From contig JAIORP010000158.1 in the NCBI GenBank assembly GCA_021108075.1, positions 5,740-69,739 on the forward strand: a DNA stretch of 64,000 nucleotides, in the 5' to 3' direction. This document shows, one piece after another, positions 12,854 to 63,418 of the stretch (position 1 is the stretch's first letter; each line of letters starts with the position of its first letter). The translations under genes and the position numbers were made by a program. Under the pieces are notes generated by a model that was not told the origin of the DNA, made no database searches, and saw only the letters and a list, made by a program, of their open reading frames with translations. The DNA is from Candidatus Omnitrophota bacterium. Its GTDB lineage: Bacteria > Omnitrophota > Gorgyraeia > Zapsychrales > Zapsychraceae.

Positions 12854-12935
12854 CATACCAATTCCATTAAATAATGACCAAAACCAATTCTTCTTTTCAG
12901 AATTAAGATAGAACAATTCATTAATGGATTTGGTA
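12854..12935. repeat. 82-bp MITE/REP-like palindromic element, copy 1 (orientation A)
   Basis: ataccaattccattaaataatgaccaaaaccaattc...cagaattaagatagaacaattcattaatggatttggtat. About 20-bp TIRs plus an internal hairpin (aattctg..cagaatt). Confidence 0.9.
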
Positions 12936-13021
12936 TCATCTAGCGTTTCAGAAGAACTCCGCATAAAAAAAATATTTTATGCCCTTGCTGTCTATCCTGT
13001 TTTATCATATTATATAAGAAA

Positions 13022-13813
13022 TTGAATCCTTTTTTCCTCTATCTCTCGAGCACACTTATCTGGTCAAATAAGCCAGATCAGTGTGAAAGGCGGACATTTT
13101 TGAGCGTACATTCCTTAAAAAAAGACTTACGAAAATATGCTGACCCCAAAAAAGCAAAAATACTGCAGCGTTTTTTTAAGACTGGCCAAGGAGAATACGG
13201 CGAAGGGGATGTCTTCCTCGGGGTAAAGGTCCCGGATACCCGTCGTGTCGCCAAAAACCATAAGGGAGAACCTCTTGAGGTCATCGACAAACTCATCCAA
13301 TCCGAGATTCATGAAGAACGGTTATTAGCTCTCCTGCTGTTAATAGAAAAATTCAACACGGCAAACCCGATTGAGCGGCAAAAATTCTTTAAATTCTACA
13401 TCACATGTTTCCCCCACATCAACAACTGGGATCTCGTGGACCTCAGTGCTCCCAAAATCGTCGGTCAATACCTGTTCGGCCAGGCTAAAAAAAAACAGCA
13501 ATACCTTATTCAACTCGCACACTCACAAAATTTATGGGAAAAACGCATCGCCATTATTTCCACCGCTTTTTTCATCCAGCAAAACAAATTTGGTTTGACT
13601 CTGGCGATCAGCAAAATTCTTCTGAACGATCAGCATGATCTCATCCACAAAGCCGTGGGCTGGATGTTGCGTGAGGTGGGCAAACGTGATATCCGCGAAG
13701 AAGAAGAATTTCTAAAAAAGCATTATCAAAAAATGCCGCGGACCATGTTGCGCTATGCCATTGAAAAATTCGAAGAGAAAAAAAGACAGGACTATTTAAA
13801 AAACCGGATATAA
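13022..13813 (+). CDS. DNA alkylation repair protein (AlkD/AlkC-like HEAT-repeat DNA glycosylase family)
   Basis: KKAKILQRFFKTGQGEYGEGDVFLGVKVPDTRRVAK is the signature of the DNA_alkylation family (pfam08713). The ORF starts at TTG, and an alternative TTG lies near 13103. Confidence 0.8.
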   Translation: MNPFFLYLSSTLIWSNKPDQCERRTFLSVHSLKKDLRKYADPKKAKILQRFFKTGQGEYGEGDVFLGVKVPDTRRVAKNHKGEPLEVIDKLIQSEIHEERLLALLLLIEKFNTANPIERQKFFKFYITCFPHINNWDLVDLSAPKIVGQYLFGQAKKKQQYLIQLAHSQNLWEKRIAIISTAFFIQQNKFGLTLAISKILLNDQHDLIHKAVGWMLREVGKRDIREEEEFLKKHYQKMPRTMLRYAIEKFEEKKRQDYLKNRI

Positions 13814-13847
13814 AAAAAGGCGCCAACCGTTATCCATCCGCTTTGTC

Positions 13848-13929
13848 ATACCAAATCCATTAATAAATTGTTCTATCTTAATTCTGAAAAGCAGAATTGA
13901 TTTTGGTCATTGTTTAATGGAATTGGTAT
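13848..13929. repeat. 82-bp MITE/REP-like element, copy 2 (orientation B, inverted relative to copy 1)
   Basis: ataccaaatccattaataaattgttctatcttaattctgaaaagcagaattgattttggtcattgtttaatggaattggtat. Confidence 0.9.
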
Positions 13930-14864
13930 CAATATAACTCATATCTGAACAATGTTCTTGTGTCCGGCTGAACGTTCGATTCCTGACTCAGCTCCCGGCT
14001 TTTTTGGCGAATCAACCGCCCCTGACCGACATGTCCGAGCGCTTCGAGACATTGGCCCCAATGCTCATAAACATCAGGGTTATCGATATCAAACTGCAAG
14101 CTGTTCCTCAAATACATAATAGCGTCCTCATATTCTTTCATATTGAACGACGCTTTTCCGAGAAACAAAAAATAGAAGCCTTTTGACGGGTTATTTTTTT
14201 GTAAGGCGTCATTAGCCACATCCATCACACTTTGATATTGCTTCAATTGATAATAGGAAAGAATGACCATCTTATAGGCGGAATCATACGCTTGCTGCAA
14301 TTGATTCACGAAATACATATCAGACTCACGATGGAATTCACGATACAACCGGATATACAAACGCTCGGAGGTAAAAACATAATCTAAGGTCTGTTCCGGA
14401 GAACGGTTATAGGCCTTACGCAGATGGGCGATCGCTAACGGGTAATCTCCTCGATGATACCGGTCCACACCTAAATTATAATGATACCAAAAAAAGTCCG
14501 GCTGCAAGGCCAGGGCCTGAGAATAAGCATCCCGGGCCGCGGAATGCTCTCCCAGCAAGTAGCTGCAATACCCGTACAATCCCATCGCATCCGCCCTTTC
14601 AGGGAACAGGTTGAAAACTTCTTTATAGTACTGCCGGAATTCCTCCAGGCGCGTGACATCCAACGCGACTTGCCCTTTCGACAGGGCCTGCAGATATTCA
14701 TTCGATTCCGGACGCAAGCGGTTAAGGGCTAGAATTTTTGCCTGGTAGACCAGGTCGGGTATATTGATGAAACCGCTTAACAATAGAAACACGAGCAGAC
14801 AAAAAAACCCGAACCGGGTTAATACATACATGATCAGACTATTTTTTCTTTGTTTTACTATCAT
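13929..14864 (-). CDS. membrane-anchored TPR-repeat protein (module 3 partner of the YfhO-like GT-C)
   Basis: N-terminal TM helix followed by TPR repeats. Paralogous to 31019-31966 and 34234-35193 (shared LQPDFFWYHYNLGV and similar motifs). Confidence 0.8.
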   Translation of the reverse strand: MIVKQRKNSLIMYVLTRFGFFCLLVFLLLSGFINIPDLVYQAKILALNRLRPESNEYLQALSKGQVALDVTRLEEFRQYYKEVFNLFPERADAMGLYGYCSYLLGEHSAARDAYSQALALQPDFFWYHYNLGVDRYHRGDYPLAIAHLRKAYNRSPEQTLDYVFTSERLYIRLYREFHRESDMYFVNQLQQAYDSAYKMVILSYYQLKQYQSVMDVANDALQKNNPSKGFYFLFLGKASFNMKEYEDAIMYLRNSLQFDIDNPDVYEHWGQCLEALGHVGQGRLIRQKSRELSQESNVQPDTRTLFRYELY

Positions 14865-14865
14865 G

Positions 14866-17049: not shown

Positions 17050-17068
17050 ATCCGAATTTTTTTATCTG

Positions 17069-17695
17069 TTACTTTGAGGACAAAATACCTTTTTGATATT
17101 CCTGAATGATCTTCCGCTTCATTTTTTCCTGCTCTTGCGCGATCACCTGCAACCGCAATTGCTGCTGAGTCACTTGCATCACGATGATCTTACGTTGATC
17201 CATCAAGGCCAGTTCTAACACCTTTTTAACAATTTTCTGGAAGAGGGGGTCCTGATACAAAGCTTGTAGATCCTGGTCAACTTTAGACTGGATATGTTGT
17301 TGGACAAGATTGGAATCGATGCCTTCTTCCAACTCTAATAAGGCTTTGTTTGTGGTGGATTCAAAAATATCCAAGGCCAATTCCCGGGTTGCCGGCTGGT
17401 TAAAAACCTGCCAGGCCGCTTGCTGTATCGCCTGAAAAGCTAACTGAGGGAATAAATCAATCTTATTATTCTGAATGGTCCGGCGGATCACTTCTCCTGA
17501 CTTTTTGATAACCGTGTTGACCACGACCTGCTGAACATAGCCCTCGATCATCGTCCGTTTGCGTTCTTTTTCCTGGTCCACTTCTGACTGCGCCGGCGAC
17601 GACATATAAACCCCATCATACGCCGCGCGTGATGGAACAGGCAGTACCAGGCATAAAAACAAACTCATCATCATAACAACTTTTTGTCTACTCAA
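17069..17695 (-). CDS. secreted coiled-coil protein, unknown function
   Basis: Signal peptide (MSLFLCLVLPVPSRA), Q/E-rich coiled-coil. Start overlaps the upstream gene by 8 nt, which suggests an operon. Confidence 0.5.
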   Translation of the reverse strand: MSRQKVVMMMSLFLCLVLPVPSRAAYDGVYMSSPAQSEVDQEKERKRTMIEGYVQQVVVNTVIKKSGEVIRRTIQNNKIDLFPQLAFQAIQQAAWQVFNQPATRELALDIFESTTNKALLELEEGIDSNLVQQHIQSKVDQDLQALYQDPLFQKIVKKVLELALMDQRKIIVMQVTQQQLRLQVIAQEQEKMKRKIIQEYQKGILSSK

Positions 17696-18371
17696 GAATC
17701 CGCTCTCCTTTCAATATTTCCGGTAATTTTCGGGCATCAATACGCAAACCGCCATCATGTTCGATCTTGATTGTATATAAGTACCCCGGAACAAACCTGG
17801 TGCCCGGGGCTTCTATCTGCGCGTTCTTAATGCCGACTTGCCCGGCCCTGGAGGCATCTAAGGCGTAAACCCAAAACTCATGCCAAAACTGATGTTCCAA
17901 AGGGTTCTCGATTACTGACATTTTATATCCCGCGGGAATAGTCTGTAAAGGGGTTATCTCAAACTCTTCTGTTTGAGCGCCATCCAGCATAAAGACTTTC
18001 CAAAAAAGAAAAACGCTGCGCCCTTTAAATAGATCCCCGCGCTTAATAAAACGATCATCAAACCGGACAACAAGGGATTGAAACTGAATGATATTGCCGG
18101 AAAAAGTAAAATATTTCGGTTCTAATGGTTGGTTGGAAACGTCGTACTCTAAAAACTTAATCGTTGTTACTGTTTTCTGTCTGTCCTGATGATATTTAAC
18201 ATTTGTGACCAAAACTTCCGCTGTCCGGGAATCCGATTCCAATCGGCTGATGATCGTCTTGTAAAATTCCTCCCGAAAGAGATAACGTTTGTATCCCACA
18301 TATCCCGCCCCACCGATTAATCCGGCGCAAACAAGACCGGCCACAACTTTTACGATTGTTACTCTTTTCAT
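17688..18371 (-). CDS. membrane-anchored periplasmic protein, unknown function
   Basis: N-terminal TM anchor (VVAGLVCAGLIGGAGYVGY). No known motifs. Confidence 0.5.
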   Translation of the reverse strand: MKRVTIVKVVAGLVCAGLIGGAGYVGYKRYLFREEFYKTIISRLESDSRTAEVLVTNVKYHQDRQKTVTTIKFLEYDVSNQPLEPKYFTFSGNIIQFQSLVVRFDDRFIKRGDLFKGRSVFLFWKVFMLDGAQTEEFEITPLQTIPAGYKMSVIENPLEHQFWHEFWVYALDASRAGQVGIKNAQIEAPGTRFVPGYLYTIKIEHDGGLRIDARKLPEILKGERILE

Positions 18372-18373
18372 GG

Positions 18374-20468: not shown

Positions 20469-20617
20469 CTCGTCCTTCTCTAAGGTCGCATACGGCTAAT
20501 CATTCCCTTGCATTATACGTGAAAAAAGAATACCGATTGTATTTTTTTTTATTAAATATTCCGACATTCACCTTTTTCAAAATTTTCATTTACGGAATCA
20601 CCAATCATCCGTAAAAT

Positions 20618-22024: not shown

Positions 22025-22216
22025 TGGGCTGGCCGTCACGGTCCTGGCCATAACCGGTTTGCTTGTTTGTTGGATCATGACCGAGAATATCCTCGCGATG
22101 AAGCGGGCAAAGACTTTTTCCCCGACAACCGACCGCTCACAGAGAGTTCAAGAACCTCTTCAAAAACAAACCATTAAACCGTATAATGCCTTATATTGGA
22201 GAGTTGCCGATGAATA

Positions 22217-22322
22217 ATACCAAATCCATTAAATAATTGCCAAAATTTCTCATCGTTTTTTGCGAACGCTTTTACGCAAATAGCAATGAGAAATCAGATG
22301 AATTATTTATTGGATTTGGTAT
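22217..22322. repeat. 106-bp variant element with the same TIRs as the 82-bp family but an unrelated core
   Basis: ataccaaatccattaaataattg[ccaaaatttctcatcg...atgagaaatcagat]gaattatttattggatttggtat. The core has its own nested hairpins. Confidence 0.8.
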
Positions 22323-22372
22323 AATTTAAACAATATCATGCCCGTTATCAAAAGGCACCAAGGAAAAATGTC

Positions 22373-29339: not shown

Positions 29340-30084
29340 CGATCATTTTAGACTCGGTTAAATTCTTTCTGGTATAGCTCTGAAGTGACACAAATGAAAT
29401 AATCAAAAAACAGGATAAAATCCGTCTCAAGGCATGTGTTTTCATGTTTAGAAACATAATGACATTACTTGTTCAGTGTCTGTTGGGTAGGTTTAATATA
29501 AATATATATTTCGCACGTCTAAGTATAATATATATATTTTATAGTGCAACTTCTCCCGGCGGACAAAATGATTGTCTCATAAATGGCAGGGCTGGCGGAT
29601 AGAATACATCCTTTTTTAAATATGGCGGAATATATACGGAATTAGCCTGACAAAATCCGTCCAGGAGGCTGTCCGAAAATAGAATTTTTGTTCAGAACAA
29701 GGCGCGATACGAGAGAAAACCCACAGGCGTACATGTGTACGTTGAGGATTTTTACGAGTTTCGCAACGCAGGACTGGACAAAAACATCATTATCGGACAG
29801 CCTCCTGGTCGGATTGCCCCATAAACTCAAACCGGGAGGCTAAGTCTTCTATCATCGAAGCCAGAACAGTCTCATGGCTTAAACGCTGATCGGATGATAC
29901 CGCCTCTTGCTGAATGCTTGCCGTTGACGCGATGCATAAAGAGAACAAAAAGGCCGTGATAACATAAAACGTCTTAACGGTCAAATTTGTCTCCTGTTCA
30001 AAAATATCTTCCATGGGAGCACCTTTTTTATGAATGTTAGAAATAATTCCATAGCAAAACTAAAAATAGTATAAAAAAGGCGCG

Positions 30085-37465: not shown

Positions 37466-39574
37466 TTAATGTGATTGAACCCCTTGCTTTTCCCGAATAA
37501 GCTGAACGGCCATGATTTTAACAATAGCATTCGGACGAGCGGCTCTTATTATAAATCGATATTCATGATACGCGACAGGATGGAGCAAAGGGTACAAACG
37601 GTCAAACCCATTCTTGTGATGAGAAATCTCACGTTTGACATCCAAATTTTTCCATTCTCTATCCTGGTAGCGGCCTTGCAATGTCCATTGGAAAGGCACT
37701 CTCTGTCCATCCCGGTTAAAACCGGATCCGATCAGTCGATAACCATACAGATCTTGGGCTAAATGTTTTGATTCGATTCGAAATTCCTGTTCTCCCCGGA
37801 TATACCAAAAAGGAAATTTTTTTTCGGGTTGAGTTCGATGCTGTTGTTCAAAGACCAAAAACGGCGCCGCATCCAATCCTTCCCGATGAACGGTTATAAG
37901 GCTTTGCGCGTCACTGCCCCCTGCCTCGAGATACACCCGGCCATCCTGAACCGCGCTTGGAGTAAATGAATACCGCACATCATTGAGATCAATGACTTTA
38001 GTAAATTTGTCGTAATATATCGCATCCCCGGGTTCGATAAAAGAAATATCTTGAGAAAATTCAGACTTCGACTCCATAATGACAGCAAAAAGCGGACGGA
38101 CATGATTCACGGAGGTCAGCATATATCCAAACTCAAATGGAAAGGCCTTGCGGACTAAAGCCGTGCCGACCGGGATTCCTTTAACAACCACGCGTTTCAT
38201 CTCTGCGGGGATTCCGGCTGTCATCTGACTTTTCAGATATCGCCATTCCAGGTAATAATTTTGTGCGACCGCCGTCATATGCCTCATTGTTACGACGCTG
38301 TAAAGCACGACCAATGCCACGCCATAAACCTTCAGCCCGCTTAAACAATCACGTTTATTTTGATCCAATTTATTCCACAGCCAAAAATGCAACACAACCC
38401 CTAGCGCGGTGGTCGGCCATAAAACCCTGAAACCCAAAACAGAAAAACACTGTTGGGCTATAATCATCGGACTGATGATCAATAAAGACAGGATCAGAAA
38501 CATAACAAACTTTTCTAAAACAAAAAACCAGGATGTGGTCTCGTTCTTATCTAAACGAGCCGCCCGATTGAATAAGCAGACCAACGGCGTAAAAACAATG
38601 ATCAGCCTTAACACAACACCAAAAGAGGGCCGCAACAGATACCAGATATGACTGATGGACAACAGCACAATTTCTTTGACCAGTCCCCACTTGCTCCAAA
38701 TATCTTTCACCAATCCCATAGAATAAACAGACCCCGCGGGGGCGGAGTATTCCAAATGCTGGCTGGCGATCGGATAGATACACTGCCGGTCTATGATCCG
38801 GTAAATCACCATGCCCGCAGAAAAAAAGATCACATCATTGATAAAAACTTTCCGTTGATCCTGTCTTTGTGACGATTTAAATGACAAAATATTTATAACC
38901 GTTAAAACAAAAACAAACAGCGCGGTTAAGGGATAAATCAATAAACTGCACTGGAAGAATATAAACGACAACACAATCCAGGCGTACTCAGAAAGACTTC
39001 GCCTTTCCCAGAGCCATTTCAATCCACGCCCTCTTTCCCAAAGGAAGTAACAAAGAAAGGCAAAGACAGCATTAAAAGGTCCACAAAAGAAATTCGCGAC
39101 CCAGATGACGTTAATTTGCTGCGGGGCGGAAAAGATCAAGCTAAATCCAGCCAGTACCGCCCAAAACGGGTCCAGAAAACGGCGCTTGATCATGAATCGG
39201 ATAAAAACGGTCATGGCGATATAAATAAAGAAAAAACATGCAAACCTTCCCCACGCTAAGGCGTTCAAACTGTTCATCCCCCACGCTAAGACGCTCACAC
39301 ATACCGCCCCTAAAGCACGTCCAACCATAAGAATGTGCACGGACTCAAAAAAACCCAGCCACTCAAAGGATTTGACAGATAACAAGGCTGCATCATTGTG
39401 ATAGGCGAAAGGGGTGATGAAAACTGGCAGATAGACAAGAAAACTAACGCAGGTTAAGGCCCAAAAGAGACATTGACTGTTACCCCATCCATAAAAAAAA
39501 TTTTGGTAAGACTTATTTATTTTTTCTTTTAAAAACTGGATCATATATAAAACATTTATTGATACCAATTCCAT
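37466..39574 (-). CDS. large polytopic membrane protein with a C-terminal soluble domain, possible GT-C-like
   Basis: 702 aa, at least 12 TM helices, then a ~250-aa hydrophilic domain. No sequence similarity to the YfhO paralogs. The annotated ATG lies inside MITE copy 3, and an alternative start is at about 39544. Confidence 0.55.
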   Translation of the reverse strand: MELVSINVLYMIQFLKEKINKSYQNFFYGWGNSQCLFWALTCVSFLVYLPVFITPFAYHNDAALLSVKSFEWLGFFESVHILMVGRALGAVCVSVLAWGMNSLNALAWGRFACFFFIYIAMTVFIRFMIKRRFLDPFWAVLAGFSLIFSAPQQINVIWVANFFCGPFNAVFAFLCYFLWERGRGLKWLWERRSLSEYAWIVLSFIFFQCSLLIYPLTALFVFVLTVINILSFKSSQRQDQRKVFINDVIFFSAGMVIYRIIDRQCIYPIASQHLEYSAPAGSVYSMGLVKDIWSKWGLVKEIVLLSISHIWYLLRPSFGVVLRLIIVFTPLVCLFNRAARLDKNETTSWFFVLEKFVMFLILSLLIISPMIIAQQCFSVLGFRVLWPTTALGVVLHFWLWNKLDQNKRDCLSGLKVYGVALVVLYSVVTMRHMTAVAQNYYLEWRYLKSQMTAGIPAEMKRVVVKGIPVGTALVRKAFPFEFGYMLTSVNHVRPLFAVIMESKSEFSQDISFIEPGDAIYYDKFTKVIDLNDVRYSFTPSAVQDGRVYLEAGGSDAQSLITVHREGLDAAPFLVFEQQHRTQPEKKFPFWYIRGEQEFRIESKHLAQDLYGYRLIGSGFNRDGQRVPFQWTLQGRYQDREWKNLDVKREISHHKNGFDRLYPLLHPVAYHEYRFIIRAARPNAIVKIMAVQLIREKQGVQSH

Positions 39575-39643
39575 TAAATAATGACCAAAACCAATTCTGC
39601 TTTTCAGAATTAAGATAGAACAATTTATTAATGGATTTGGTAT
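39562..39643. repeat. 82-bp MITE/REP-like element, copy 3 (orientation A)
   Basis: ataccaattccattaaataatgaccaaaaccaattctgcttttcagaattaagatagaacaatttattaatggatttggtat. Confidence 0.9.
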
Positions 39644-39670
39644 GATTACAAATATCGACCGTGTCTATTT

Positions 39671-39754
39671 ATACCCATTCCGATTCTGCTTTTCCCGACG
39701 CTTAAGCAAAAATATCAGAATTGAAATAAAACAATTAACTAATAAATTTGGTAT
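39671..39754. repeat. degenerate, deleted copy of the 104-bp insertion variant of the element
   Basis: atacccattccgattctgcttttcccgacgcttaagcaaaaatatcagaattgaaataaaacaattaactaataaatttggtat. Shares the extra segment (cgacg.tt.agc.a.aatat) seen in the 62190-62293 copy. Confidence 0.65.
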
Positions 39755-40812
39755 TACCATTTAAAAGTAATACTGGTTCTCTCACAGCGTGAACAAACAG
39801 AAACCGCTCCCCGCCCTTTTTCATTCAATAGCATACGCATTTTCTGCGCGGAATGTCCATTCCAAATTTCTAATAAATTTGTTACACCAATCTTAAACGT
39901 CCCATAACGGGTTGTATCGCTCCAAACAGCACATTCGCAGCAGGCTAAAATATCGCCATTCCAATCCAATTGCATGGCCTTCCATATCCAATCGCACGAC
40001 CCCTTTAACGGCAGAACGGCCTGACTCAATGCCGGCTCCTGATCCTCTAATCCTCCTTTGGGATTACCGGGCCGAACATTTAACATAATTCCTAATGGGC
40101 GACAAAAGTCCTGGACCAACTTCAATTCATGCTGATTGTAATTATAGAGGATATAGTCAATCATAATGACGGTGCCGAAACGCCCTTTTTTATTTTTCTC
40201 CACCAATAAACGGATATTTGATTTAATCTTTTCAATATCACCATGCCGGACCTGAACATTATAAATATCTTTCGAAAATCCGCTTATGGCTATCTTTACA
40301 AAATCTAATCCCGCGTCCAATAATTCTTCGATCTTCCGCTCTGTTAATAATGAGCCATTGGTCGCGATCATGGTTGCCACACCTTGATCGGTTGCGGATT
40401 GGATGACCCGAGCCAAGTCCTTGTATATAAGCGGTTCCCCATTGGTGTATAAAACGGCTATAAGCAAATAATCCTTTAATTGCCGAATGATATCTAAGGC
40501 CATCTCAAGCGGCATTTTTCCTTTAGGGATTGTTCCCGTCCGACCTTTAGGATTCACATCAGGAATCACTCCTCTGGCATCACGGCAAAACAAACAATTC
40601 GCATTGCACTCATTGGATAAGTCCAGACTCAACATGTAGGGACCTTGCGCGGAGATCGGATTTTTTCTCCAATAAGCGAAATAACAATCCAACATATTTC
40701 TTATTTTGCGGATATTAATTTTCTTCTGCTGAATAACCCGCTGTAAAATTTTGAGGTGAAGTAAGATGTATTGATTGCGCATAGATATTTTTTTGGGGCT
40801 GTGAGAACCCAT
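39754..40812 (-). CDS. radical SAM/SPASM-domain protein
   Basis: LSLDLSNECNANCLFCRD (CxxxCxxC) and a C-terminal Cys-rich SPASM-like region (CDWIW...ILACCECAVW...CSRC). The real start is probably the internal M at about 40695, which avoids overlap with the upstream GT2 gene. Confidence 0.8.
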   Translation of the reverse strand: MGSHSPKKISMRNQYILLHLKILQRVIQQKKINIRKIRNMLDCYFAYWRKNPISAQGPYMLSLDLSNECNANCLFCRDARGVIPDVNPKGRTGTIPKGKMPLEMALDIIRQLKDYLLIAVLYTNGEPLIYKDLARVIQSATDQGVATMIATNGSLLTERKIEELLDAGLDFVKIAISGFSKDIYNVQVRHGDIEKIKSNIRLLVEKNKKGRFGTVIMIDYILYNYNQHELKLVQDFCRPLGIMLNVRPGNPKGGLEDQEPALSQAVLPLKGSCDWIWKAMQLDWNGDILACCECAVWSDTTRYGTFKIGVTNLLEIWNGHSAQKMRMLLNEKGRGAVSVCSRCERTSITFKW

Positions 40813-41876: not shown

Positions 41877-42968
41877 TCATTCCAGCTCTTCTTTTCCGAA
41901 TTCCCGATTTAAATAACACCACTCCTCGTCATCCATTTCCCATTCGCTGTATACGGCAAGCCCACGATAATTTTCTGGTAAGGACTCAAACCGCAGCAAC
42001 CCCGCGTGTATCCCGAATAAAGCGTTCTGGATGTTTTCCACTTTGGGTGAATGATATAAGACCGTCGCATCATCATAAACAGGCACACCCAGGAGTATTT
42101 CTGTTCCCTGCCCCCAGGTTAAAACATCCCTGGTCCAAGCACTCATCACTTTTTGGTAAACCTTCTGCAAACGTATGGCGCTGTCATACATCATAACGGC
42201 AATTTGGTCAGCATGTTGCGCCACCTGCTGATAGTATTTCCGCCCCCAATGGACCCTGGGAAAAGGATGCCACTTTGTCGGAGGAGGATAAGCGGCGATC
42301 GACAATATCTTGTCCCGCGGCATCGCCTGCCGGAGTTCTTGAAGCAGATCCAAAAAATCAGTATCGCCGGAAATCATCGGCTCAATATTCACTTGCACAC
42401 CAGCCAGACGAGGGTGGCGCGCGAACAGATCAAGGATGGATGCGATGAAACGGGAACGCCATTCACGCGAGTCGATAAAGCAATGCGTGCCCACAATACC
42501 GCCAACCCAAGGGATGACCTTCAAATCACTTAACTGATCTAGAAAAATTTCCGTGTTAGGTTCATCGTGACGGGCAATCTTGCCATCCGGCTGGCACGGA
42601 CAGACATGAGGAAAAACATATTTTATGCCATGAAAACGCAATTTACTGGCCAACCGCGCCATTTGGCGAGCATCACGAAATCTTGATTTGTCTCTCTTGT
42701 TGCGCTGAAACCAATCATCATCTCCCATCCAACCATGCTGCAACCATATGGCATTCGTACGCAGGTCATGCCGGCCGTCACGGACAAGCCGGCCCGGATG
42801 CCACGCGGCATAAGCAAATACCAACATGATCATGGTCAACAAAATGAATGCCGCCATCAACACTCTTTTTGACCGGTTCATTTGAGAATAAAATTTTAAC
42901 ATCCTTGACGAAGTCCTCGCGCAACAATCCATCCTGAGGTGAAAACGAGCACATAATACCAAATCCAT
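41877..42968 (-). CDS. membrane-anchored protein with a putative glycoside-hydrolase-like TIM-barrel domain
   Basis: Probable start at MNRSKRVLMAAFILLTMIMLVFAYAAW (signal anchor). The soluble domain has alternating beta/alpha character. Family assignment is tentative. Confidence 0.4.
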   Translation of the reverse strand: MDLVLCARFHLRMDCCARTSSRMLKFYSQMNRSKRVLMAAFILLTMIMLVFAYAAWHPGRLVRDGRHDLRTNAIWLQHGWMGDDDWFQRNKRDKSRFRDARQMARLASKLRFHGIKYVFPHVCPCQPDGKIARHDEPNTEIFLDQLSDLKVIPWVGGIVGTHCFIDSREWRSRFIASILDLFARHPRLAGVQVNIEPMISGDTDFLDLLQELRQAMPRDKILSIAAYPPPTKWHPFPRVHWGRKYYQQVAQHADQIAVMMYDSAIRLQKVYQKVMSAWTRDVLTWGQGTEILLGVPVYDDATVLYHSPKVENIQNALFGIHAGLLRFESLPENYRGLAVYSEWEMDDEEWCYLNREFGKEELE

Positions 42969-43059
42969 TACATCATATAAAGTCGAACATTAAAATAAAA
43001 ATAAGGATCTCAAGACCGAAAAACATTGATCCACACCATGGGCAACATAACGGTTCTGA

Positions 43060-43962
43060 TTAATAAAACGAAGCCGAAATACTGTCAAATAATTCTTTCG
43101 ATTCAAAAACTTGACTTCTTGGATTGTCTACTATGACCAATTTTTTGCGATCATATTCAACAATAAAATGACGCCAATAAAATTCAATCTCAGACAATTC
43201 TTTACGAAAAGAGGCCTCTAAATAAGAGTTATAGCCATCCAATGTGTTTTCTTTTAACTGCTCTAAATATGCTCTTAACTTTCCCCTTTTATGCAAAAAG
43301 AGGATGACGAGACGAACCTCATTCTTTGTTAATTGATCGACAGGCTTTGTAACAATGTCACTTAATTTAATCCCCGCTATGCCCCCACGGTTCATAAGTT
43401 CTTGCGTACGGATGGGACTATGATAGCCGACATTCAAGACGAGCTGCCCATCATCTTCATAGACATAAATCATCTCAAAAAAAGATGCCAGGCCCATGAC
43501 GAACCAGGGGGGTGCGCTTCTAAAGCGACCTGCCATCAAAGGCTGCATGACAATATAAGCAACCGTTCCGATATCAGCCTCTTCATGCGTTATCAACGCT
43601 CTTAAATCATATACGTATTCCCCCCCATCAGAAGGAATTCCATCTAACTCCTGACGAATGAACGATCGAAATTCTTCTCTGTCAGATAAGACATAAAAAT
43701 CAAGCGGATCGACGATATCCGTCTCAAAATAATGATTTTTAATAAAAGGCACAAACGCATCCGCGAACGCAGCAAATTCCGGAACAACCTGAATCTTCTT
43801 GTTATAGTAAAATGTGAAATGCTTCGATTGGTAGCTATTATCAAAATATGCCGCAGGATTAAAATTCCTGCGCTTGTGTTCTTTAACAGAAAGATAATAC
43901 ATTCCCATTAAAATAATGATGCCGGCCAGAACAATCCGTGAATAAAACTTGTCTGAATCCAT
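43060..43962 (-). CDS. membrane-anchored hypothetical protein
   Basis: N-terminal TM (IVLAGIIILMGMYYL), then a ~270-aa soluble domain. No motif recognised. Confidence 0.45.
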   Translation of the reverse strand: MDSDKFYSRIVLAGIIILMGMYYLSVKEHKRRNFNPAAYFDNSYQSKHFTFYYNKKIQVVPEFAAFADAFVPFIKNHYFETDIVDPLDFYVLSDREEFRSFIRQELDGIPSDGGEYVYDLRALITHEEADIGTVAYIVMQPLMAGRFRSAPPWFVMGLASFFEMIYVYEDDGQLVLNVGYHSPIRTQELMNRGGIAGIKLSDIVTKPVDQLTKNEVRLVILFLHKRGKLRAYLEQLKENTLDGYNSYLEASFRKELSEIEFYWRHFIVEYDRKKLVIVDNPRSQVFESKELFDSISASFY

Positions 43963-43983
43963 CTCGTTCCCTTCCTTATCATT

Positions 43984-44065
43984 ATACCAATTCCATTAAA
44001 TAATGACCAAAACCAATTCTGCTTTTCAGAATTAAGATAGAACAATTTATTAATGGATTTGGTAT
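43984..44065. repeat. 82-bp MITE/REP-like element, copy 4 (orientation A)
   Basis: Identical family sequence. Its 3' end (ggtat|TA) supplies or abuts the TAA stop of gene 44065-44811. Confidence 0.9.
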
Positions 44066-44811
44066 TACGTGACGTTAATATCCGGACGGAAATGCTTTAA
44101 AAACTTTTTGTCTGGATAGATAGTAACTTTTTGAAACTCTTTTGTTTCCCCGGTTCTTAATTGAAACCGCAAGGTTTTATTCCATATTCCTTTCATTGCA
44201 ACGGAATCGATTTCTGATAAGACCAGTTCTTTAAAAGTGTTGTCTTTCCCATCTCTTTGAATCAAACGTTGATTCGTTAAAATAAACCAGGCCGGATTTT
44301 TTGCGCCCGCCTCATCCCCAACACCGACTAAAAACTCGCCCGGCTGAGGTGGAAATTGGGTAAATAAGACATGCAAACAGCCACCTTCTTGTGGAGGATA
44401 AATTTTAACAAAATCTTCATAGGGCGTTTTAGCCTCCTGTTGAAAAGCCGCGTTCAAATCGGAAAGTTGCCCAGAACCCCAGGCATCCAGGGTGGACTGA
44501 TAAAAACCGACGACCCTTTGATCTTGAAGCAACACGCTGTCCACCGCAGCCCGAACAGAATCAACATGCCGTCTGGCTGAAAAAAATTCTTTTGTGTCAA
44601 AAGCATACCAGACCAAACAAGCAACAATAAAAACAGTTTGTGAAATCGGCATCCCGAAAAGCGCAATTTGATCCCCTTGCGCATACACCGTCAGGCCCCA
44701 GATTAATATCCCTGTTGTCAGAATGTAGCCGAAGACAGCTCCAACGGTTTTAGAACCTTTAGACATGACACCCTGCAGAAGAATAGCAACAATGATATAT
44801 GGATTAAACAT
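44065..44811 (-). CDS. membrane protein with a C-terminal soluble domain, unknown function
   Basis: Three N-terminal TM helices followed by a ~150-aa soluble domain. Confidence 0.45.
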   Translation of the reverse strand: MFNPYIIVAILLQGVMSKGSKTVGAVFGYILTTGILIWGLTVYAQGDQIALFGMPISQTVFIVACLVWYAFDTKEFFSARRHVDSVRAAVDSVLLQDQRVVGFYQSTLDAWGSGQLSDLNAAFQQEAKTPYEDFVKIYPPQEGGCLHVLFTQFPPQPGEFLVGVGDEAGAKNPAWFILTNQRLIQRDGKDNTFKELVLSEIDSVAMKGIWNKTLRFQLRTGETKEFQKVTIYPDKKFLKHFRPDINVT

Positions 44812-51493: not shown

Positions 51494-51533
51494 GTGTCTT
51501 GTGGTCCAGACTGCGGCATCTAAATAACGGCTT

Positions 51534-51615
51534 ATACCAAATCCATTAATAAATTGTTCTATCTTAATTCTGAAAAGCAGAATTGGGTTTGGTCATTATT
51601 TAATGGAATTGGTAT
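51534..51615. repeat. 82-bp MITE/REP-like element, copy 5 (orientation B)
   Basis: ataccaaatccattaataaattgttctatcttaattctgaaaagcagaattgggtttggtcattatttaatggaattggtat. Confidence 0.9.
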
Positions 51616-51650
51616 TATCGGCTCATCCATACAAAAAAGAACAAACGGGA

Positions 51651-52364: not shown

Positions 52365-52481
52365 CCTTTTGGTTTAACTCACATTTCGAATAAAAAATAT
52401 GAAGTTTCAATTTAAACTGAAGACAAAAGGACAGACGCATATTCTATGCCGCTGTCCTTTTGTCTTCAAAACTCAATTGTT

Positions 52482-52563
52482 ATACCAAATCCATTAATTA
52501 ATTGTTCTATTTTAATTCTGAAAAACAGAATTGGTTTTGGTCATTATTTAATGGAATTGGTAT
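52482..52563. repeat. 82-bp MITE/REP-like element, copy 6 (orientation B)
   Basis: ataccaaatccattaattaattgttctattttaattctgaaaaacagaattggttttggtcattatttaatggaattggtat. Lies immediately 3' of the PFOR stop. Confidence 0.9.
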
Positions 52564-52580
52564 TATCATGGACAAATAAT

Positions 52581-57487: not shown

Positions 57488-57536
57488 TCAAATTACATTG
57501 ATTTTAATACATTTCCTTATTTTCACAAACAAAAAA

Positions 57537-58298
57537 TTAAATCTTCGTGACAGCCAAAGACCGGCTCCAACCCATCTTCCCATCCAACCGTTGAACTTTA
57601 ATCCAATCCTCCCGCTGTTCAATGATTCGCACGCGGGTGCCGTCAAAAAGTGTGAAATGTTTTGTCGCCTTCATTTGCGGCTCAAAAAGCGCATCCTCTT
57701 GCCCGATCATAACAGCGGCCCCAGCCTCAATATCCTTTTTATAAAAAAACGTTATCAGATGGAGAACCAATAAGACAGCGATGAGACCGAGAACAACGCG
57801 CGTGATGACGGAAGACCACCTCGAGCACATAAAAACGACTGCCGAGATCAACCCGCAGGCATAAAGAACAAAAATAATTCTTGCGATCAGGTCTAATGAA
57901 AATTGCCGGTGATACGAATCAAGCATTCTTTTGATGAAAGGAGGATTTTGGGTGGAACTGGTTTTTTTGACTTGTGATAACGCAAAGGCATAATTAGCCC
58001 TTAGATCACTATCTTTCGGAATGTATTTTCTGGCCCGTTCATAATTTAAAATGGCCATCCCGACTCGACCTGTCTTGAAATAGCTGTTACCTAAATTATA
58101 ATAGAGCGCCCCGCTCGCTTGACCGTCATTCAAAATCTGTTCGTAAAGAAGAATGGCCTCCTGATACTGACCTTGCCGGTAACGGTCATTCGCTTGTTCA
58201 AATATTTTTGTAAAAGCGCAAACGTCCCGGGGTATCAAGCTCAACGCGGCAAAGGCTAAAAATAAAAAAACAATAATATCACTTCTTTTCATTTCCAT
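57537..58298 (-). CDS. batE: BatE-like TPR + SH3b domain aerotolerance-operon protein
   Basis: Signal peptide, TPRs (GALYYNLGNSYFKTGR), a TM helix and a C-terminal SH3b-like domain (WIKVQRLDGKMGWSRS). Confidence 0.6.
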   Translation of the reverse strand: MEMKRSDIIVFLFLAFAALSLIPRDVCAFTKIFEQANDRYRQGQYQEAILLYEQILNDGQASGALYYNLGNSYFKTGRVGMAILNYERARKYIPKDSDLRANYAFALSQVKKTSSTQNPPFIKRMLDSYHRQFSLDLIARIIFVLYACGLISAVVFMCSRWSSVITRVVLGLIAVLLVLHLITFFYKKDIEAGAAVMIGQEDALFEPQMKATKHFTLFDGTRVRIIEQREDWIKVQRLDGKMGWSRSLAVTKI

Positions 58299-60196
58299 TT
58301 CCTCTCACAGTCATCAATCAACTCCTCACAGGCTTTTAAGCTCTGTTGCATCTTACTTTTATCGATGGTCATGGAAGCGAAACGGACCTCATCGCACTGC
58401 AGACAAATGTCCTTAAGTTTTTGGTATTGATTTTCTTCCATGTTCTTACTTTTAACAATCGGATCCAGCTTATCAAACGTCAAACCCTGTGACGGCAAAT
58501 GCAGTTTATTGCCGAAATAATTTCGCAGTGTTTTAAAAATCTGGTTGTAAAAATCCTCTGGTTGGTTTTGCTCTAAAAACTTACGGGCGGCTTTTATCCC
58601 CTTACGGGCGGCTTTTGGAGCTTTAAGACGACGCGCATACGCGATATCTGTTTTAATTTTCTGATTATGATTAAAGAGGATTAGAAAAACAATGAATATC
58701 AGTGTGATAATAACATACCATAACTTTATTTTCAGACTTTTGTAGAACCGATAATTTACGGTATAAATTGGGCCGGCCTTTTCCTTAATAAAAATAATAT
58801 CGCGGCCTAATGTTTCTTGGACCGTTTGCACCACGGTTGTTGCCGGGTGCGCTATGACCGTTAAGGCTTGATCATTTAAGGACTTCTCAACGGTTATCGC
58901 GAAGGGCCCCTGTTTGATCGTTTGATATTTTTTGGTCTGGGGGTCAAAATAGGAAAAGGCCAACGCGGGGACCTGGCGAATCTTATCTGATTTAGGGATT
59001 AAAACCTGTTCTAATGTCTTAATCGAATGATCCTCTTTGACTTCAGGTTCGTAAACTTTAAATTTGTCATCTTCGATATGCGACGGTATCCTGACCTGTC
59101 TTAAGTCACCCCGGCCACGGATCCGGGCCTTCAGTGTGATCGGGTCGCCCACATTCACGGTTGTTGGGCTTGCCGCAACTTGGAACGTAAACTGGCCGAC
59201 AGCCCCTGAGAAAGTGGCTGGTTGACCTTCATTCGGTAAGGGCAAAATATTCATCCTCTGAGCATCCGCCCGCACAGCATACGGCCTCTTTTCGACCCGG
59301 CCAAAAAATTCATCAAAGAAGTCCTCGCTCATCATGGCGCCACCAAAAAAATCTTCTTCAAAAATGGAACGACGTCTTTTCTGACGTTGGCGCCGCAAAC
59401 TGCAGTTAAGCTGCACCGGGCCAAAATCTAAAGAACCGGTCCGTTGAGGATAAACGGTTGTCTTGAATTCAAGAATCTCAAAGCGAACCCCGTCGATACT
59501 GTCTTCATACCGCCGCGGTTGTTGGAAGTCCCCGGAAAAGAATCCCGTCTTCTCAAACACTGGAAACTGAATATCCCCAACAGAAAGACCACTGACAGAC
59601 AGTTTGATCGTGACCGGGATTTCTTCATACAGGTAATAATCTTTTCGGGGGATATCAACCTGAAGAAAAATTCGATCCTCCAGGGCAACCGGTTCCTGAG
59701 ATTGTTGCGGTGAATACTGTTGATGGGGCGTGACTTTATTATAAACCTCAATCTTCAGAGGTTGTGTTGTGTATGTTTTCCCCTTGATTGACAATGACAT
59801 GGCGGGGACCTGAAATGTTCCTGTCCTCTCAGGATATAAGGCAAACGTATGCGACTGGGACTGCGATGACTTGCCGTTGACCCAGGAAAAACTTGTTGAA
59901 GGGTGCAAATACCGCGCTTGAAAACCATCCAACGGGGGTAAATTCACTTGCCCGACTTGCGCGCCATAAATGGTGACTGTTAATTGAACCGAACCATCCA
60001 AAGGAACACGGCTCCGGTTAACGGTGGTCTCGACGGAAATATCTCCTGCTACGGCCATCCGCGGTTGCGCGAGAATAATGCTCCATATACACACCAATCC
60101 CATCAACCACCTCAACACAGAAGCGTGGCCATATGTGCGCCGTAAAAATTTATGATTCATCGTCAGCACACGCATAATTTCACCAATCTCGCTCAA
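58289..60196 (-). CDS. batD: BatD-like protein
   Basis: 635 aa with a signal peptide, a long beta-rich periplasmic region, a TM helix and a C-terminal cytoplasmic tail. Position in the bat operon. Probable start at the internal M at about 60175. Confidence 0.65.
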   Translation of the reverse strand: MSEIGEIMRVLTMNHKFLRRTYGHASVLRWLMGLVCIWSIILAQPRMAVAGDISVETTVNRSRVPLDGSVQLTVTIYGAQVGQVNLPPLDGFQARYLHPSTSFSWVNGKSSQSQSHTFALYPERTGTFQVPAMSLSIKGKTYTTQPLKIEVYNKVTPHQQYSPQQSQEPVALEDRIFLQVDIPRKDYYLYEEIPVTIKLSVSGLSVGDIQFPVFEKTGFFSGDFQQPRRYEDSIDGVRFEILEFKTTVYPQRTGSLDFGPVQLNCSLRRQRQKRRRSIFEEDFFGGAMMSEDFFDEFFGRVEKRPYAVRADAQRMNILPLPNEGQPATFSGAVGQFTFQVAASPTTVNVGDPITLKARIRGRGDLRQVRIPSHIEDDKFKVYEPEVKEDHSIKTLEQVLIPKSDKIRQVPALAFSYFDPQTKKYQTIKQGPFAITVEKSLNDQALTVIAHPATTVVQTVQETLGRDIIFIKEKAGPIYTVNYRFYKSLKIKLWYVIITLIFIVFLILFNHNQKIKTDIAYARRLKAPKAARKGIKAARKFLEQNQPEDFYNQIFKTLRNYFGNKLHLPSQGLTFDKLDPIVKSKNMEENQYQKLKDICLQCDEVRFASMTIDKSKMQQSLKACEELIDDCERKWK

Positions 60197-61199
60197 CTTT
60201 TCTCATTTTTAGATATTCCTCCGGGGGAATAAAAATTATTTGCTGTTGCTGTTGCTGCATATATTGATCTAATAACATCATCGCTTCTTTCTTATCTAAC
60301 CGGTCAGAGGCATCCTCATCAAAAAGCATATTCGCGCGATCTTCAGTGGCAGCATCCTTCTTTTCACCCTTGGATTTCTCTTGGGCGACTGAATCCTTCT
60401 CTCCTTTACCCCTGGCGTCTTCTGCCTGCTCATCTTCCTGGCCAGCCGGCTCGCCATCCTTGCCCTGCCTGCTTTTGTCTTTCTCCTCTTGCCCCGGCTG
60501 ATTCATTTTATTCTCCGTCTTCTCATCCTGTTTTTTATTTTGAGAACCGTTGTTATTCAGCGGACACGTTTTATTGGGATCTTTCCGCTGTTCATCCCCC
60601 TCCTGGTTTTGCTGACCTTTTTCTTGTTCTTTCTGCTGTCGCTCCAGGGCTTTCTTATACTCTTCATATTTCTTTTCGACAAACGCCCGATTAAATGTGA
60701 CATCCTCATCCTGACTGTCGATCGCAAGGGCCTTATCATATTCTTCCATGGCTGATTCCAGTAACGTCACCGCTTCAGGCAATTGCGTGTCCGCCTGCTC
60801 TTCCCCTAAACGGTACAATGTGTTGCCCAAATTGTAATACGCTTTTTGACGCAAGGACGGCTCATCACCCAACAAGGATTGGTAAAAGTAATTCAGCGAT
60901 TCATTATAGTCTTGTTTTTTATAATGGGCTGTTCCCAAATTAAAACTTATAATAGCATCATTCGGCTGTTGTTCTATACCTTTTTCATACGCCTGGACCG
61001 CGGCACCATACATCCCTTTTTGATAAAAACGATTTCCTTTTTTTACGTCTGTACCGACCGCCGCCTGCGCACTTCCATGCCAACAAGCAGTCAGCAGGAG
61101 CAGCGCAATGAGAGGACATATGTTAAATTTCAAAATCCGTTCCTTCATCTGTTTCAGACCTTCTTCACTTTTCGAGTCGTTAATAATGTTTCCCAACAC
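60180..61199 (-). CDS. batC: BatC-like TPR protein with a long acidic/basic low-complexity tail
   Basis: Signal peptide, TPRs (AYYNLGNTLYRLGEEQ), then a K/E/Q-rich tail. Probable start at the internal M at about 61148. Confidence 0.65.
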   Translation of the reverse strand: MLGNIINDSKSEEGLKQMKERILKFNICPLIALLLLTACWHGSAQAAVGTDVKKGNRFYQKGMYGAAVQAYEKGIEQQPNDAIISFNLGTAHYKKQDYNESLNYFYQSLLGDEPSLRQKAYYNLGNTLYRLGEEQADTQLPEAVTLLESAMEEYDKALAIDSQDEDVTFNRAFVEKKYEEYKKALERQQKEQEKGQQNQEGDEQRKDPNKTCPLNNNGSQNKKQDEKTENKMNQPGQEEKDKSRQGKDGEPAGQEDEQAEDARGKGEKDSVAQEKSKGEKKDAATEDRANMLFDEDASDRLDKKEAMMLLDQYMQQQQQQIIFIPPEEYLKMRKVERDW

Positions 61200-62161
61200 A
61201 ACAAAATAAACGCCATGAACAAAGGATATTGAAAGCGCTCATGATAACGTTTTTCCATTTGGCTTTTAAACTCAACCTTTTCAAACTTCGATAAATATTG
61301 ATCGTAGATCACATCCAGGCCGAATTCCGCTCCACTGGACCGCACATAAACACCCCCGGTTGTCAGGGCAATATCTTGCATAATTTTTTCATTTAACCGG
61401 GATTTAACAAAATTTCCGTCTTTGTCCTTTAAGAATTCTGACTGTCCTAAATCATTCTTCACACGAATCAACTCCCCTTCTTTTGTCCCGATACCCACAC
61501 AGAATATCTTAATGTTATCCTGAAGGGCCTTCTTCGCCAATTCCAAAACATTGCCTTGAAGATCTTCACCATCTGTAATAATAACCAACGCTTTATGTTT
61601 ACTTGAGATATCTTTATAACTCTGCAGGGCTTCAGCAATCGCCTCGCTGATGGAGGTTCCACCCCGGGGAATCGTCGAGGTATCAACATGTTCAAGGGTC
61701 AGGAGGAAACCATCATAGTCTGTTGTTAATGGACAAATCATAAAACTGCCTCCGGCAAAGGCGATCAAACCCACCCGGTCTCCCTTAAGTTTCTTTAATA
61801 GGTCTCTAATCGCAAGCTTGGACCTTTCCAGACGGTTCGGCTTAACATCCTGCGTCAGCATGCTCTTTGACGTATCGATCGCGACCATAATATTGATGCC
61901 CTCCCGTTTGATCTCTTGCCAATCAAATCCCCATTGCGGCCGGACCAAAGCCAGTAAAACAAAAATGTACACACAAATGAGCAGAACAGCCTTCCCCTTC
62001 TCTCGTCGCTGGATAAAGTCCGGGATGATCGACGGCCAGAGATGGGCCGCGATAAAACACTGTCTTTGTTTATTTTTGAAAGCCAGCCGGATGAAAATAA
62101 AAAGACTCAACCCGATGATCACCCAGGTAAAATGTAACATGTGTTGTGCGGCTAATTTCAT
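61154..62161 (-). CDS. batB: BatB-like von Willebrand factor A domain membrane protein
   Basis: Two N-terminal TM helices and a vWA MIDAS motif (IMVAIDTSKSM...GDRVGLIAFAG...TDG). Confidence 0.8.
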   Translation of the reverse strand: MKLAAQHMLHFTWVIIGLSLFIFIRLAFKNKQRQCFIAAHLWPSIIPDFIQRREKGKAVLLICVYIFVLLALVRPQWGFDWQEIKREGINIMVAIDTSKSMLTQDVKPNRLERSKLAIRDLLKKLKGDRVGLIAFAGGSFMICPLTTDYDGFLLTLEHVDTSTIPRGGTSISEAIAEALQSYKDISSKHKALVIITDGEDLQGNVLELAKKALQDNIKIFCVGIGTKEGELIRVKNDLGQSEFLKDKDGNFVKSRLNEKIMQDIALTTGGVYVRSSGAEFGLDVIYDQYLSKFEKVEFKSQMEKRYHERFQYPLFMAFILLCWETLLTTRKVKKV

Positions 62162-62189
62162 TATGATCTCAGTTTCTATCGTTTGAATT

Positions 62190-62293
62190 ATACCAATTCC
62201 ATTAAATAATGACCAAACCCAATTCTGCTTTTCTCGACGATTTAGCGAGAATATCAGAATTAAGATAGAGCAATTTATTAATGGATTTGGTAT
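62190..62293. repeat. 104-bp variant of the element carrying a ~22-bp internal insertion (orientation A)
   Basis: ataccaattccattaaataatgaccaaacccaattctgcttttc[tcgacgatttagcgagaatat]cagaattaagatagagcaatttattaatggatttggtat. Confidence 0.85.
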
Positions 62294-62299
62294 TATATC

Positions 62300-63319
62300 T
62301 CACGGTAGTGTCATCAAGACGGTCCATCTTAAGGTCACCTCTATGGTTAATAACAGCATCGCCCCTAACAAAATAAACGGGAACAACTGTTTGTATTCTT
62401 TGTAGCCCGTTTCTTCACGCTCTGTTTTTTCAAGACGGTCAATTTCATTGTAGATGTCTTTTAACGACTCCGTGTCCGTCGCCCGAAAATATTGACCGTC
62501 CGAGATGGAGGCCAGTTCCTTTAGAAGCCCTTCATCCATATCAATGCGGACATTTTGCATGATCGTGCGTCCGAATAAATCCTGGACAGGAAAAGGAACG
62601 CGCCCCTTGGACCCGGCACCAATGGTATACACTTTTATCCCCAGTGCCCGCGCAGCTTTTGCAGCATCCAGGGGTTGAAACTGGCCGGCATTATTCTTCC
62701 CGTCTGTCAACAAAATCACAATCTTGCTTTTAACATCCCGTTCTTTTAAACGGGTTAGAGACGTCGCCAGTGCCGATCCGATCGCTGTTCCATCTTCCCT
62801 GATCAGGCCTAACTCAACACGGTCCAAATTCATTTTAATCCAATCATAATCTGTCGTTAAGGGCGAAATCGTATACGCCCGCGCCGCAAAAACGACAATC
62901 CCGATCCGGTCCCCCCTCCGTTGAGATATGAAATCTTTGACCACGTCCTTGACCACGGCCAAACGGTTCACGCGCCTTCCCTTAATAACAAAATCCTGGG
63001 CAGCCATACTCCCGGAGGCATCTATGGCCAAAATAATGTCAATCCCTTCCGTCTTAATCTCGGTCTGCTGCAGGATTTGCCGCGGGCCAGCTAAGGCCAA
63101 TAGAAAAAGCACAAGGACAAAGAGACGAAGAAACGGTAACCATTTCAGGGCGCGCGCACGCCATGAGACCTTCACATCCTTCATGATGTTGACCGAAGAA
63201 AACCGGAATGAAACGGGCCGCTGACGTTTAAGCAGATAAATCATCCCGGCCACACACACGGGGATGAACCATAACAGCCAGGGGTCTTTGAACGATATCA
63301 TTGTCATAAGGTTTATCAT
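62300..63319 (-). CDS. batA: BatA-like von Willebrand factor A domain membrane protein
   Basis: N-terminal TM helices and a vWA MIDAS motif (IILAIDASGSM...GDRIGIVVFAA...LLTDGKNN). Confidence 0.8.
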   Translation of the reverse strand: MINLMTMISFKDPWLLWFIPVCVAGMIYLLKRQRPVSFRFSSVNIMKDVKVSWRARALKWLPFLRLFVLVLFLLALAGPRQILQQTEIKTEGIDIILAIDASGSMAAQDFVIKGRRVNRLAVVKDVVKDFISQRRGDRIGIVVFAARAYTISPLTTDYDWIKMNLDRVELGLIREDGTAIGSALATSLTRLKERDVKSKIVILLTDGKNNAGQFQPLDAAKAARALGIKVYTIGAGSKGRVPFPVQDLFGRTIMQNVRIDMDEGLLKELASISDGQYFRATDTESLKDIYNEIDRLEKTEREETGYKEYKQLFPFILLGAMLLLTIEVTLRWTVLMTLP

Positions 63320-63336
63320 CTGAGCACCAAAAAATT

Positions 63337-63418
63337 ATACCAAATCCATTAATAAATTGTTCTATCTTAATTCTGAAAAGCAAAATTGGTTTTGGTCATT
63401 ATTTAATGGAATTGGTAT
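63337..63418. repeat. 82-bp MITE/REP-like element, copy 8 (orientation B)
   Basis: ataccaaatccattaataaattgttctatcttaattctgaaaagcaaaattggttttggtcattatttaatggaattggtat. Confidence 0.9.

Follow-up and report, generated by a model that had tools for sequence, protein, structure and literature searches.

A palindromic MITE family in an Omnitrophota genome with TNA target duplications and the ends of IS630-family insertion sequences

Nezha, a MITE (miniature inverted-repeat transposable element) of Anabaena/Nostoc, is small and palindromic, has a stable fold and has apparently been mobile in recent times, and its terminal and direct repeats match ISNpu3, an insertion sequence (IS) found only in another species (PMC3184786). 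The RUP elements of Streptococcus pneumoniae and the Correia elements (CREE) of Neisseria are ~100-150 bp long, possess terminal repeats and target duplications, and are densely distributed in intergenic DNA. Both RUP and Correia elements have a TA duplication, and ISNpu3 belongs to the IS630 family. The IS630-Tc1-mariner group has been described as recognising and duplicating TA (PMC8533490). Here we examine a 64,000-nucleotide stretch of a Candidatus Omnitrophota genome (contig JAIORP010000158.1, positions 5,740 to 69,739; hereafter the window), which contains ten intergenic copies of one palindromic element and one solo end of it. We consider it very probable that the ten copies are MITEs mobilised in trans by an IS630-family DDE transposase that duplicates TNA.

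The window element shares with Nezha its small palindromic structure, stable fold and apparently recent mobility, yet it differs in sequence, in host phylum and in length (80-104 bp, compared to 130-170 bp for Nezha). Unlike Nezha it is flanked by a TNA duplication, and the same ends occur in records of five phylum-level lineages. With RUP and Correia it has size, terminal repeats, target duplications and dense intergenic placement in common, but no sequence similarity. As such, the window repeats are an ordinary kind of MITE, comparable to Nezha, RUP and Correia, and what sets them apart is modest: the TNA duplication and the ends shared across phyla. The relationship between Nezha and ISNpu3 is a precedent for a MITE whose end-sharing IS occurs only in another species.

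Element structure and target-site duplication

The element proper extends from TACC to GGTA and measures 80 bp in its main form, slightly less than the ~82 bp given in an earlier, sequence-based reading of the window (the original prediction). Two ~19-bp terminal inverted repeats (TACCAAWTCCATTAAWWAA) surround a short palindromic core. In the aligned copies these repeats are 19-20 bp long with 1-2 mismatches. Seven of the ten copies are 80 bp long, and the others comprise a 102-bp copy, a deleted copy of 82 bp and a 104-bp copy of a separate subfamily; elements of 80-104 bp leave no room for a transposase gene.

When the copies were aligned with their flanks, an identical 3-bp direct repeat of the form TNA was found on both sides of all ten (TTA in six, TCA in two, TGA in one and TAA in one), with the middle base matching across the element every time. 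Because TCA/TCA and TGA/TGA are direct and not inverted, the repeats cannot be a continuation of the palindrome and represent a 3-bp target-site duplication. A TA or TAA duplication had been proposed originally, of which the 3-bp alternative came closer, while TA was wrong. If TA were duplicated and the element read as ATACC...GGTAT, every copy should have TAA at its left side and TTA at its right, a pattern seen in none of the ten. The copies thus combine the features of a MITE, being small, non-coding and dispersed, with terminal inverted repeats, a target duplication and ends common to autonomous ISs (see below). They are listed here with the solo end, the span that includes both flanking repeats being given in brackets:

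12856-12935 (12853..12938), plus strand: 80-bp copy with TCA on both sides, between divergent genes for a DUF3313 protein and a DNA-alkylation-repair protein
13849-13928 (13846..13931), minus strand: 80-bp copy with TCA, the right TCA being the TGA stop of the minus-strand TPR gene 13929-14864
22218-22321 (22215..22324), plus strand: 104-bp subfamily copy with TAA, a near-perfect long palindrome
39563-39642 (39560..39645), plus strand: 80-bp copy with a TGA duplication
39672-39753 (39669..39756), plus strand: 82-bp copy derived from the 102-bp form by internal deletion, with TTA, the right TTA being the TAA stop of the minus-strand radical-SAM/SPASM gene 39754-40812
42957..42975, plus strand: remnant of a solo terminal repeat, TACCAAATCCATTACATCA, with TAA before it, located between a GH18-like gene and gene 43060-43962 and probably left over from a decayed copy
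43985-44064 (43982..44067), plus strand: 80-bp copy with TTA, the right TTA being the TAA stop of the minus-strand gene 44065-44811
51535-51614 (51532..51617), minus strand: 80-bp copy with TTA, between DUF2092-like and spermidine-synthase-like genes
52483-52562 (52480..52565), minus strand: 80-bp copy with TTA, inserted after the stop codon of the pyruvate:ferredoxin oxidoreductase (PFOR) gene and ahead of a terminator-like hairpin
62191-62292 (62188..62295), plus strand: 102-bp copy with TTA, between batB-like and batA-like genes
63338-63417 (63335..63420), minus strand: 80-bp copy with TTA, immediately upstream of the batA-like gene

The repeats are at the positions first predicted. A repeat search of the window recovered all canonical copies, as two oriented sets of four ~87-99-nt copies each, and also recovered the 39673/62212 pair and the 22213-22326 palindrome. 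The 20-nt terminal motif ATACCAAWTCCATTAAWTAA, allowing up to three mismatches, matched 20 times in the window against 0.09 matches expected from shuffling. An nhmmer profile made from window and related copies found exactly ten elements in the window, with the rest at noise. The high identity claimed for the canonical copies is borne out by the seven 80-bp copies, whose pairwise identity is 93.8-100% (mean 96.8%), and the terminal inverted repeats, internal hairpin, presence in both orientations and intergenic location are all as first described. The copies span 50 kb in ten different intergenic contexts, and their spacing is irregular, ranging from 0.1 to 26 kb. One copy per 6.4 kb is a high density, but it falls inside the range of other bacterial MITE/REP families. 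The eight canonical copies are divided 4:4 between the two orientations, and nearly all flanking genes lie on one strand.

An independent 73-kb assembly likewise contains the insertion at 43985, and contigs of two separate sequencing runs end 25 nt inside the repeat at this site, which is the behaviour expected where the assembly k-mer is shorter than a repeat. Because of the independent assembly and these contig breaks, the copies cannot be attributed to an assembly artefact.

Insertion sequences and MITEs with the same ends

The end motif was scanned against one genome per species, which gave at least 84 loci; the host genome of the window was not among the matches listed, and the occurrences in named genomes reported in this section are likewise from among the matches listed. 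Terminal-repeat pairs 1090-1094 bp apart were found in Psychromonas sp. PT13 (locus L080) and Vibrio sp. HN007 (L004 and L077), a degenerate ~1.1-kb pair was found in Colwellia sp. TT2012 (L061), and transposase-coding fragments were present in P. hadalis, P. marina, Shewanella litoralis and Vibrio sp. 99-70-13A1. These ISs share the 19-bp terminal repeat of the MITE and encode their transposase in two overlapping open reading frames (ORFs), orfA carrying helix-turn-helix (HTH) domains (HTH_33/32/29/23/28) and orfB a DDE_3 domain (PF13358, E = 1.9e-28). On the NCBIfam model NF033545, 'IS630 family transposase' (cut-off 100), a full-length transposase homologue reached 252 bits, and NCBI applies the name IS630 family transposase to close homologues in Colwellia, Vibrio, Photobacterium, Shewanella and Oceanisphaera; a search of plasmids gave only generic 'IS630 family transposase' labels. 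The classification as a dispersed MITE of IS630/Tc1 type, offered in the original prediction, is upheld by these full-length ISs. The autonomous parent that it envisaged has counterparts with the same ends in Psychromonas and Vibrio, but as relatives and not as the parent itself.

The length of the duplication can be read directly in Vibrio sp. HN007, where one IS copy lies inside another at two chromosome 2 loci and at different positions (L004 934-3116 and L077 268-2450), one of the targets being the IS's own subterminal hairpin. At L004 the intact IS reads GCAGAG-TGA-GATAAC and the interrupted one GCAGAG-TGA[TACC...1090 bp...GGTA]TGA-GATAAC. At L077, removal of the inner IS together with 3 bp restores a gap-free 1090-bp alignment in which 1073/1090 positions are identical. 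The IS lineage of this strain duplicates exactly 3 bp, and these comparisons of filled and empty sites exclude a TA duplication as well as an element that starts at CCAA.

Beyond these nested copies, identical TNA flanks were present in 47/71 candidate terminal-repeat pairs of the retrieved loci, a count which includes degenerate and spurious pairs, and in most terminal-repeat pairs of the metagenome contigs. Two abutting MITEs in L067 overlap at TTAA, which fits successive insertions at TTA and TAA. Candidate terminal-repeat pairs 1.4-1.5 kb apart, in L093 and L016, were set aside because they enclose host genes and not transposases.

Like canonical IS630/Tc1-mariner elements, the ISs with these ends encode HTH and DDE_3 domains, are ~1.1 kb long and have short terminal repeats, but they duplicate TNA where the canonical elements duplicate TA. 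A 2-bp TA duplication is listed for an IS630 element of Endozoicomonas whose end (ATRCCAAT...) is similar (PMC6007542). Among eukaryotic elements, 3-bp duplications of TAA/TTA are the hallmark of Zator and are made by Zator-1 (PMC12905397), and a derivation of Zator from bacterial TP36 elements, which cluster with IS630, has been reported (PMC7386202); the likeness of the present lineage to Zator lies in the length and sequence of the duplication alone. Our literature search gave no IS630 subgroup with a TNA or 3-bp duplication, which is an absence of hits and not proof of novelty. Tentatively, the MITE and its end-sharing ISs might belong to an unrecognised IS630 branch that cuts TNA with a 3-nt stagger, a TP36-like counterpart of Zator that has moved between phyla, among them marine Gammaproteobacteria and lineages of host-dependent or predatory bacteria (Omnitrophota, Bdellovibrionota), although we regard this as doubtful at present.

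MITEs with near-identical ends were present in records of all five phylum-level lineages, going by their labels (Gammaproteobacteria, Bdellovibrionota, Omnitrophota, 'Planctomycetales' and cyanobacterial). The 'Planctomycetales' metagenome-assembled genome (MAG) CAZIRV01 contains many copies of 100-109 bp with TNA flanks, up to five per 8 kb, and the first 44 nt of the window element are 93-98% identical to these copies. The Omnitrophota MAG OFTM38 holds copies of 102-104 bp with TNA flanks. TNA also flanks copies of 81, 139 and 175-181 bp in three Bdellovibrionota MAGs, elements of 158-263 bp in Alteromonadaceae, Colwellia, Thalassomonas, Algicola, Paraglaciecola and Psychromonas, and a 241-bp element in a Synechococcales (cyanobacterial) MAG. 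A metagenome scan for one end of the element, the A end, gave 11 contigs, all containing 100-109-bp MITEs without a transposase, and marine-sediment metagenome contigs carry a 103-bp form at a density similar to that of the window. A scan of viral contigs returned single unpaired matches only, with no MITE or IS.

A second palindromic element, unrelated to the first, is located at 29654-29815 of the window in a ~1-kb stretch without long ORFs. Its 42-nt arms are 83% complementary, and as RNA it folds at -80 kcal/mol (z -9). Copies 82% identical to it are found in CAZIRV01 (L059 6202-6349 and L016 6212-6352), the latter lying within the long ORF of an Lnt-like gene. The genome of the window and CAZIRV01 therefore share two small repeat families.

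Origin and spread of the copies

In the mechanism we propose, an IS630-family DDE transposase would recognise the 19-bp ends and excise the MITE, which would then be re-inserted at a TNA trinucleotide by a 3-nt staggered cut, and repair of the stagger would duplicate TNA. Loss of 22 bp of the central hairpin from the 102-bp form would have given rise to the 80-bp form, followed by a recent burst in this lineage, and copies would persist only where insertion is harmless, namely in AT-rich intergenic DNA.

Several results weigh against mobilisation by such a transposase. A tblastn search with the parent-type transposase found nothing in the window, and Pfam searches of the genes neighbouring the copies were negative, in line with the original prediction that the window lacks a cognate transposase. 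No transposase with these ends was present in any Omnitrophota, CAZIRV01 or metagenome locus retrieved, and the best 120 source-named transposase homologues are all gammaproteobacterial. Beyond the terminal repeats, the core of the MITE matches the gammaproteobacterial IS ends at 14/15 nt, which is of borderline significance. Finally, no base-level empty site was obtained for any MITE copy of this genome, because the nearest relatives have only 77-82% protein identity and their intergenic DNA is unalignable, and because searches for identical proteins led back to the same strain alone. Since the core similarity is weak, the gammaproteobacterial ISs are relatives of the parent and not the parent itself; taken with the lack of a transposase in Omnitrophota-type loci, this points to an unsampled relative as the true parent. 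As no matching transposase was found in the window or in those loci, we infer mobilisation in trans in this host from the ends and duplications, and a matching transposase presumably is, or was, present in the organism.

The history of the copies can be traced through their size classes. The 102-bp form at 62191, with a central hairpin CTCG-N8-CGAG, is the form that is widespread in the comparison with other genomes, being common to the CAZIRV01 MAG, the OFTM38 MAG and the marine-sediment metagenome contigs, whereas the 80-bp copies are without 22 bp of its central hairpin. Judged from these alignments, the 102-bp form is ancestral and the 80-bp form a deletion derivative that later amplified. 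What had been described as a 22-bp insertion in the copy at 62190 is accordingly to be read the other way around, the deletion being in the 80-bp copies. The deleted copy noted near 39671 corresponds to 39672-39753, which is the 102-bp form minus ~20 bp in the left arm, with both tips and the TTA duplication kept. The end-sharing variant noted near 22217 is the 104-bp copy 22218-22321, which forms a separate subfamily similar to a copy in OFTM38.

An identity of 94-100% among the 80-bp copies suggests recent spread in the lineage of the window. The junction specific to the 80-bp form had no match in the JGI metagenome collection. MetH and PFOR of the window match, at 100% identity, proteins that NCBI assigns to a 'Candidatus Omnitrophica bacterium' MAG; the next nearest sequences share 77-82% protein identity with them and are mostly from Omnitrophota. 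Syntenic relatives (~78% PFOR identity) keep the order of PFOR, a small gene and the spermidine-synthase-like gene, and no copy is present in 19-23 kb around their PFOR gene, a region that covers the 51535 and 52483 sites, which argues that the copies were gained in the lineage of the window. One further relative locus, L090, covers just the MITE-free left end of the window.

A different explanation is selection by the host: the elements would then serve chiefly as structured signals in RNA or DNA, for example mRNA stabilisers of the REP/ERIC kind, terminators or promoters, and their repetition would reflect function and not recent transposition. As RNA, each copy does form a single long hairpin whichever strand is read, at -21 to -43 kcal/mol and with z from -4.4 to -10; one copy is situated after the stop codon of PFOR and ahead of a terminator-like hairpin, and two are between genes of the bat-like operon. 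However, the hairpin is an automatic consequence of the inverted repeats, and scans of the window with Rfam (gathering thresholds) and for tRNAs gave no match. The A end also presents an outward promoter-like motif, TGGTCA-17 nt-TGgTATnAT, in which a -35-like TGGTCA precedes an extended -10-like sequence completed by the TNA duplication and flank (score 9-10/12 plus TG, a consensus match only). It is found at 12852-12880, 51590-51618, 52538-52566, 62187-62215 and 63393-63421. The motif faces a downstream gene start in four copies and is antisense in four, so that nothing suggests it has been selected. Functional promoters are present in Correia elements, in contrast to this consensus-level motif of unbiased orientation. 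With a 4:4 orientation of the copies despite flanking genes on one strand, target duplications and ends common to transposase-bearing ISs that indicate arrival by transposition, and syntenic relatives lacking the copies, we find an origin as host signals improbable. Co-option by the host could have occurred as a secondary event without being the origin of the elements.

Still less probable is that the copies are Tourist-like MITEs of an IS5 or PIF-Harbinger-type transposase. A 3-bp TNA duplication, present at all copies, is a signature of IS5 (IS1031 group) and PIF/Harbinger elements. Nevertheless, every full-length element found with these ends among the matches listed encodes HTH and DDE_3, not DDE_Tnp_1/4, and these IS630-family elements themselves make the 3-bp duplication, which excludes IS5 and PIF-Harbinger as parents.

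It is scarcely credible that the copies are REPs or REPINs mobilised by a RAYT (Y1) transposase, or attC sites at the sides of integron cassettes, although they are short palindromes in intergenic DNA and single genes are bracketed by three pairs of them (12856/13849, 51535/52483 and 62191/63338). The terminal inverted repeats and target duplications of the copies are lacking in REPs, which are palindromes of 20-40 bp, and in attC sites. The copies are irregularly spaced in both orientations among housekeeping genes (MetH, NrdD, PFOR, Bat), the contig resembles a chromosome, the 30 window ORFs scanned include no RAYT, integrase or other recombinase, and relatives hold the same gene order without the elements. 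An attC array and a local duplication, both raised in the original prediction, are ruled out by copies that lie among unrelated housekeeping genes in both orientations with their own target duplications.

Gene context and implications

The MITE copies are neighboured by ordinary chromosomal genes, including those for MetH, NrdD, PFOR, radical-SAM enzymes and glycosyltransferases as well as a batA-D-like operon. Of the window ORFs, 30 were scanned for domains (ten with NCBIfam and twenty with Pfam) and none is a transposase, integrase or RAYT; the twenty scanned with Pfam include every gene adjoining a copy, and the remaining window ORFs were outside the scan. In three of the ten copies one TNA repeat is the stop codon (TAA or TGA) of the adjacent gene (13929-13931, 39754-39756 and 44065-44067). 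TAA and TGA are both among the forms of TNA that can be read on one strand or the other, and the stop codon is restored by the duplication; given the very short original spacers, three insertions at stop codons are unsurprising.

From their positions, the copies at 52483, 62191 and 63338 are probably transcribed. Copies of this kind would appear as stable hairpins in 3' untranslated regions (UTRs) and operon mRNAs, with incidental effects on expression. The aerotolerance operon in which MITE copies are found between genes extends over 58289-64000 and is batA/batB/batC/batD-like, with domains for BatA N-terminal plus VWA, VWA, TPR and BatD.

A MITE end also touches the coding region of gene 37466-39574, whose longest ORF starts at an ATG from the terminal repeat (CCATT, or AATGG on the other strand). 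An in-frame ATG is present at 39544, beyond the element, so the protein may gain 10 residues from the MITE or none.

Within the literature searched, no MITE family in Omnitrophota was found to have been described, which again is an absence of hits and not proof, and the present account is the first concrete description of one that we found. For this organism, the element explains why short-k-mer assemblies break at intergenic sites, and its copies are useful as strain markers. Because copies lie inside 3' UTRs and the bat-like operon, expression of the genes concerned may be perturbed. More broadly, a TNA-duplicating IS630 lineage bears on the evolution of target choice in the IS630/Tc1/mariner/Zator group and on the annotation of its elements.

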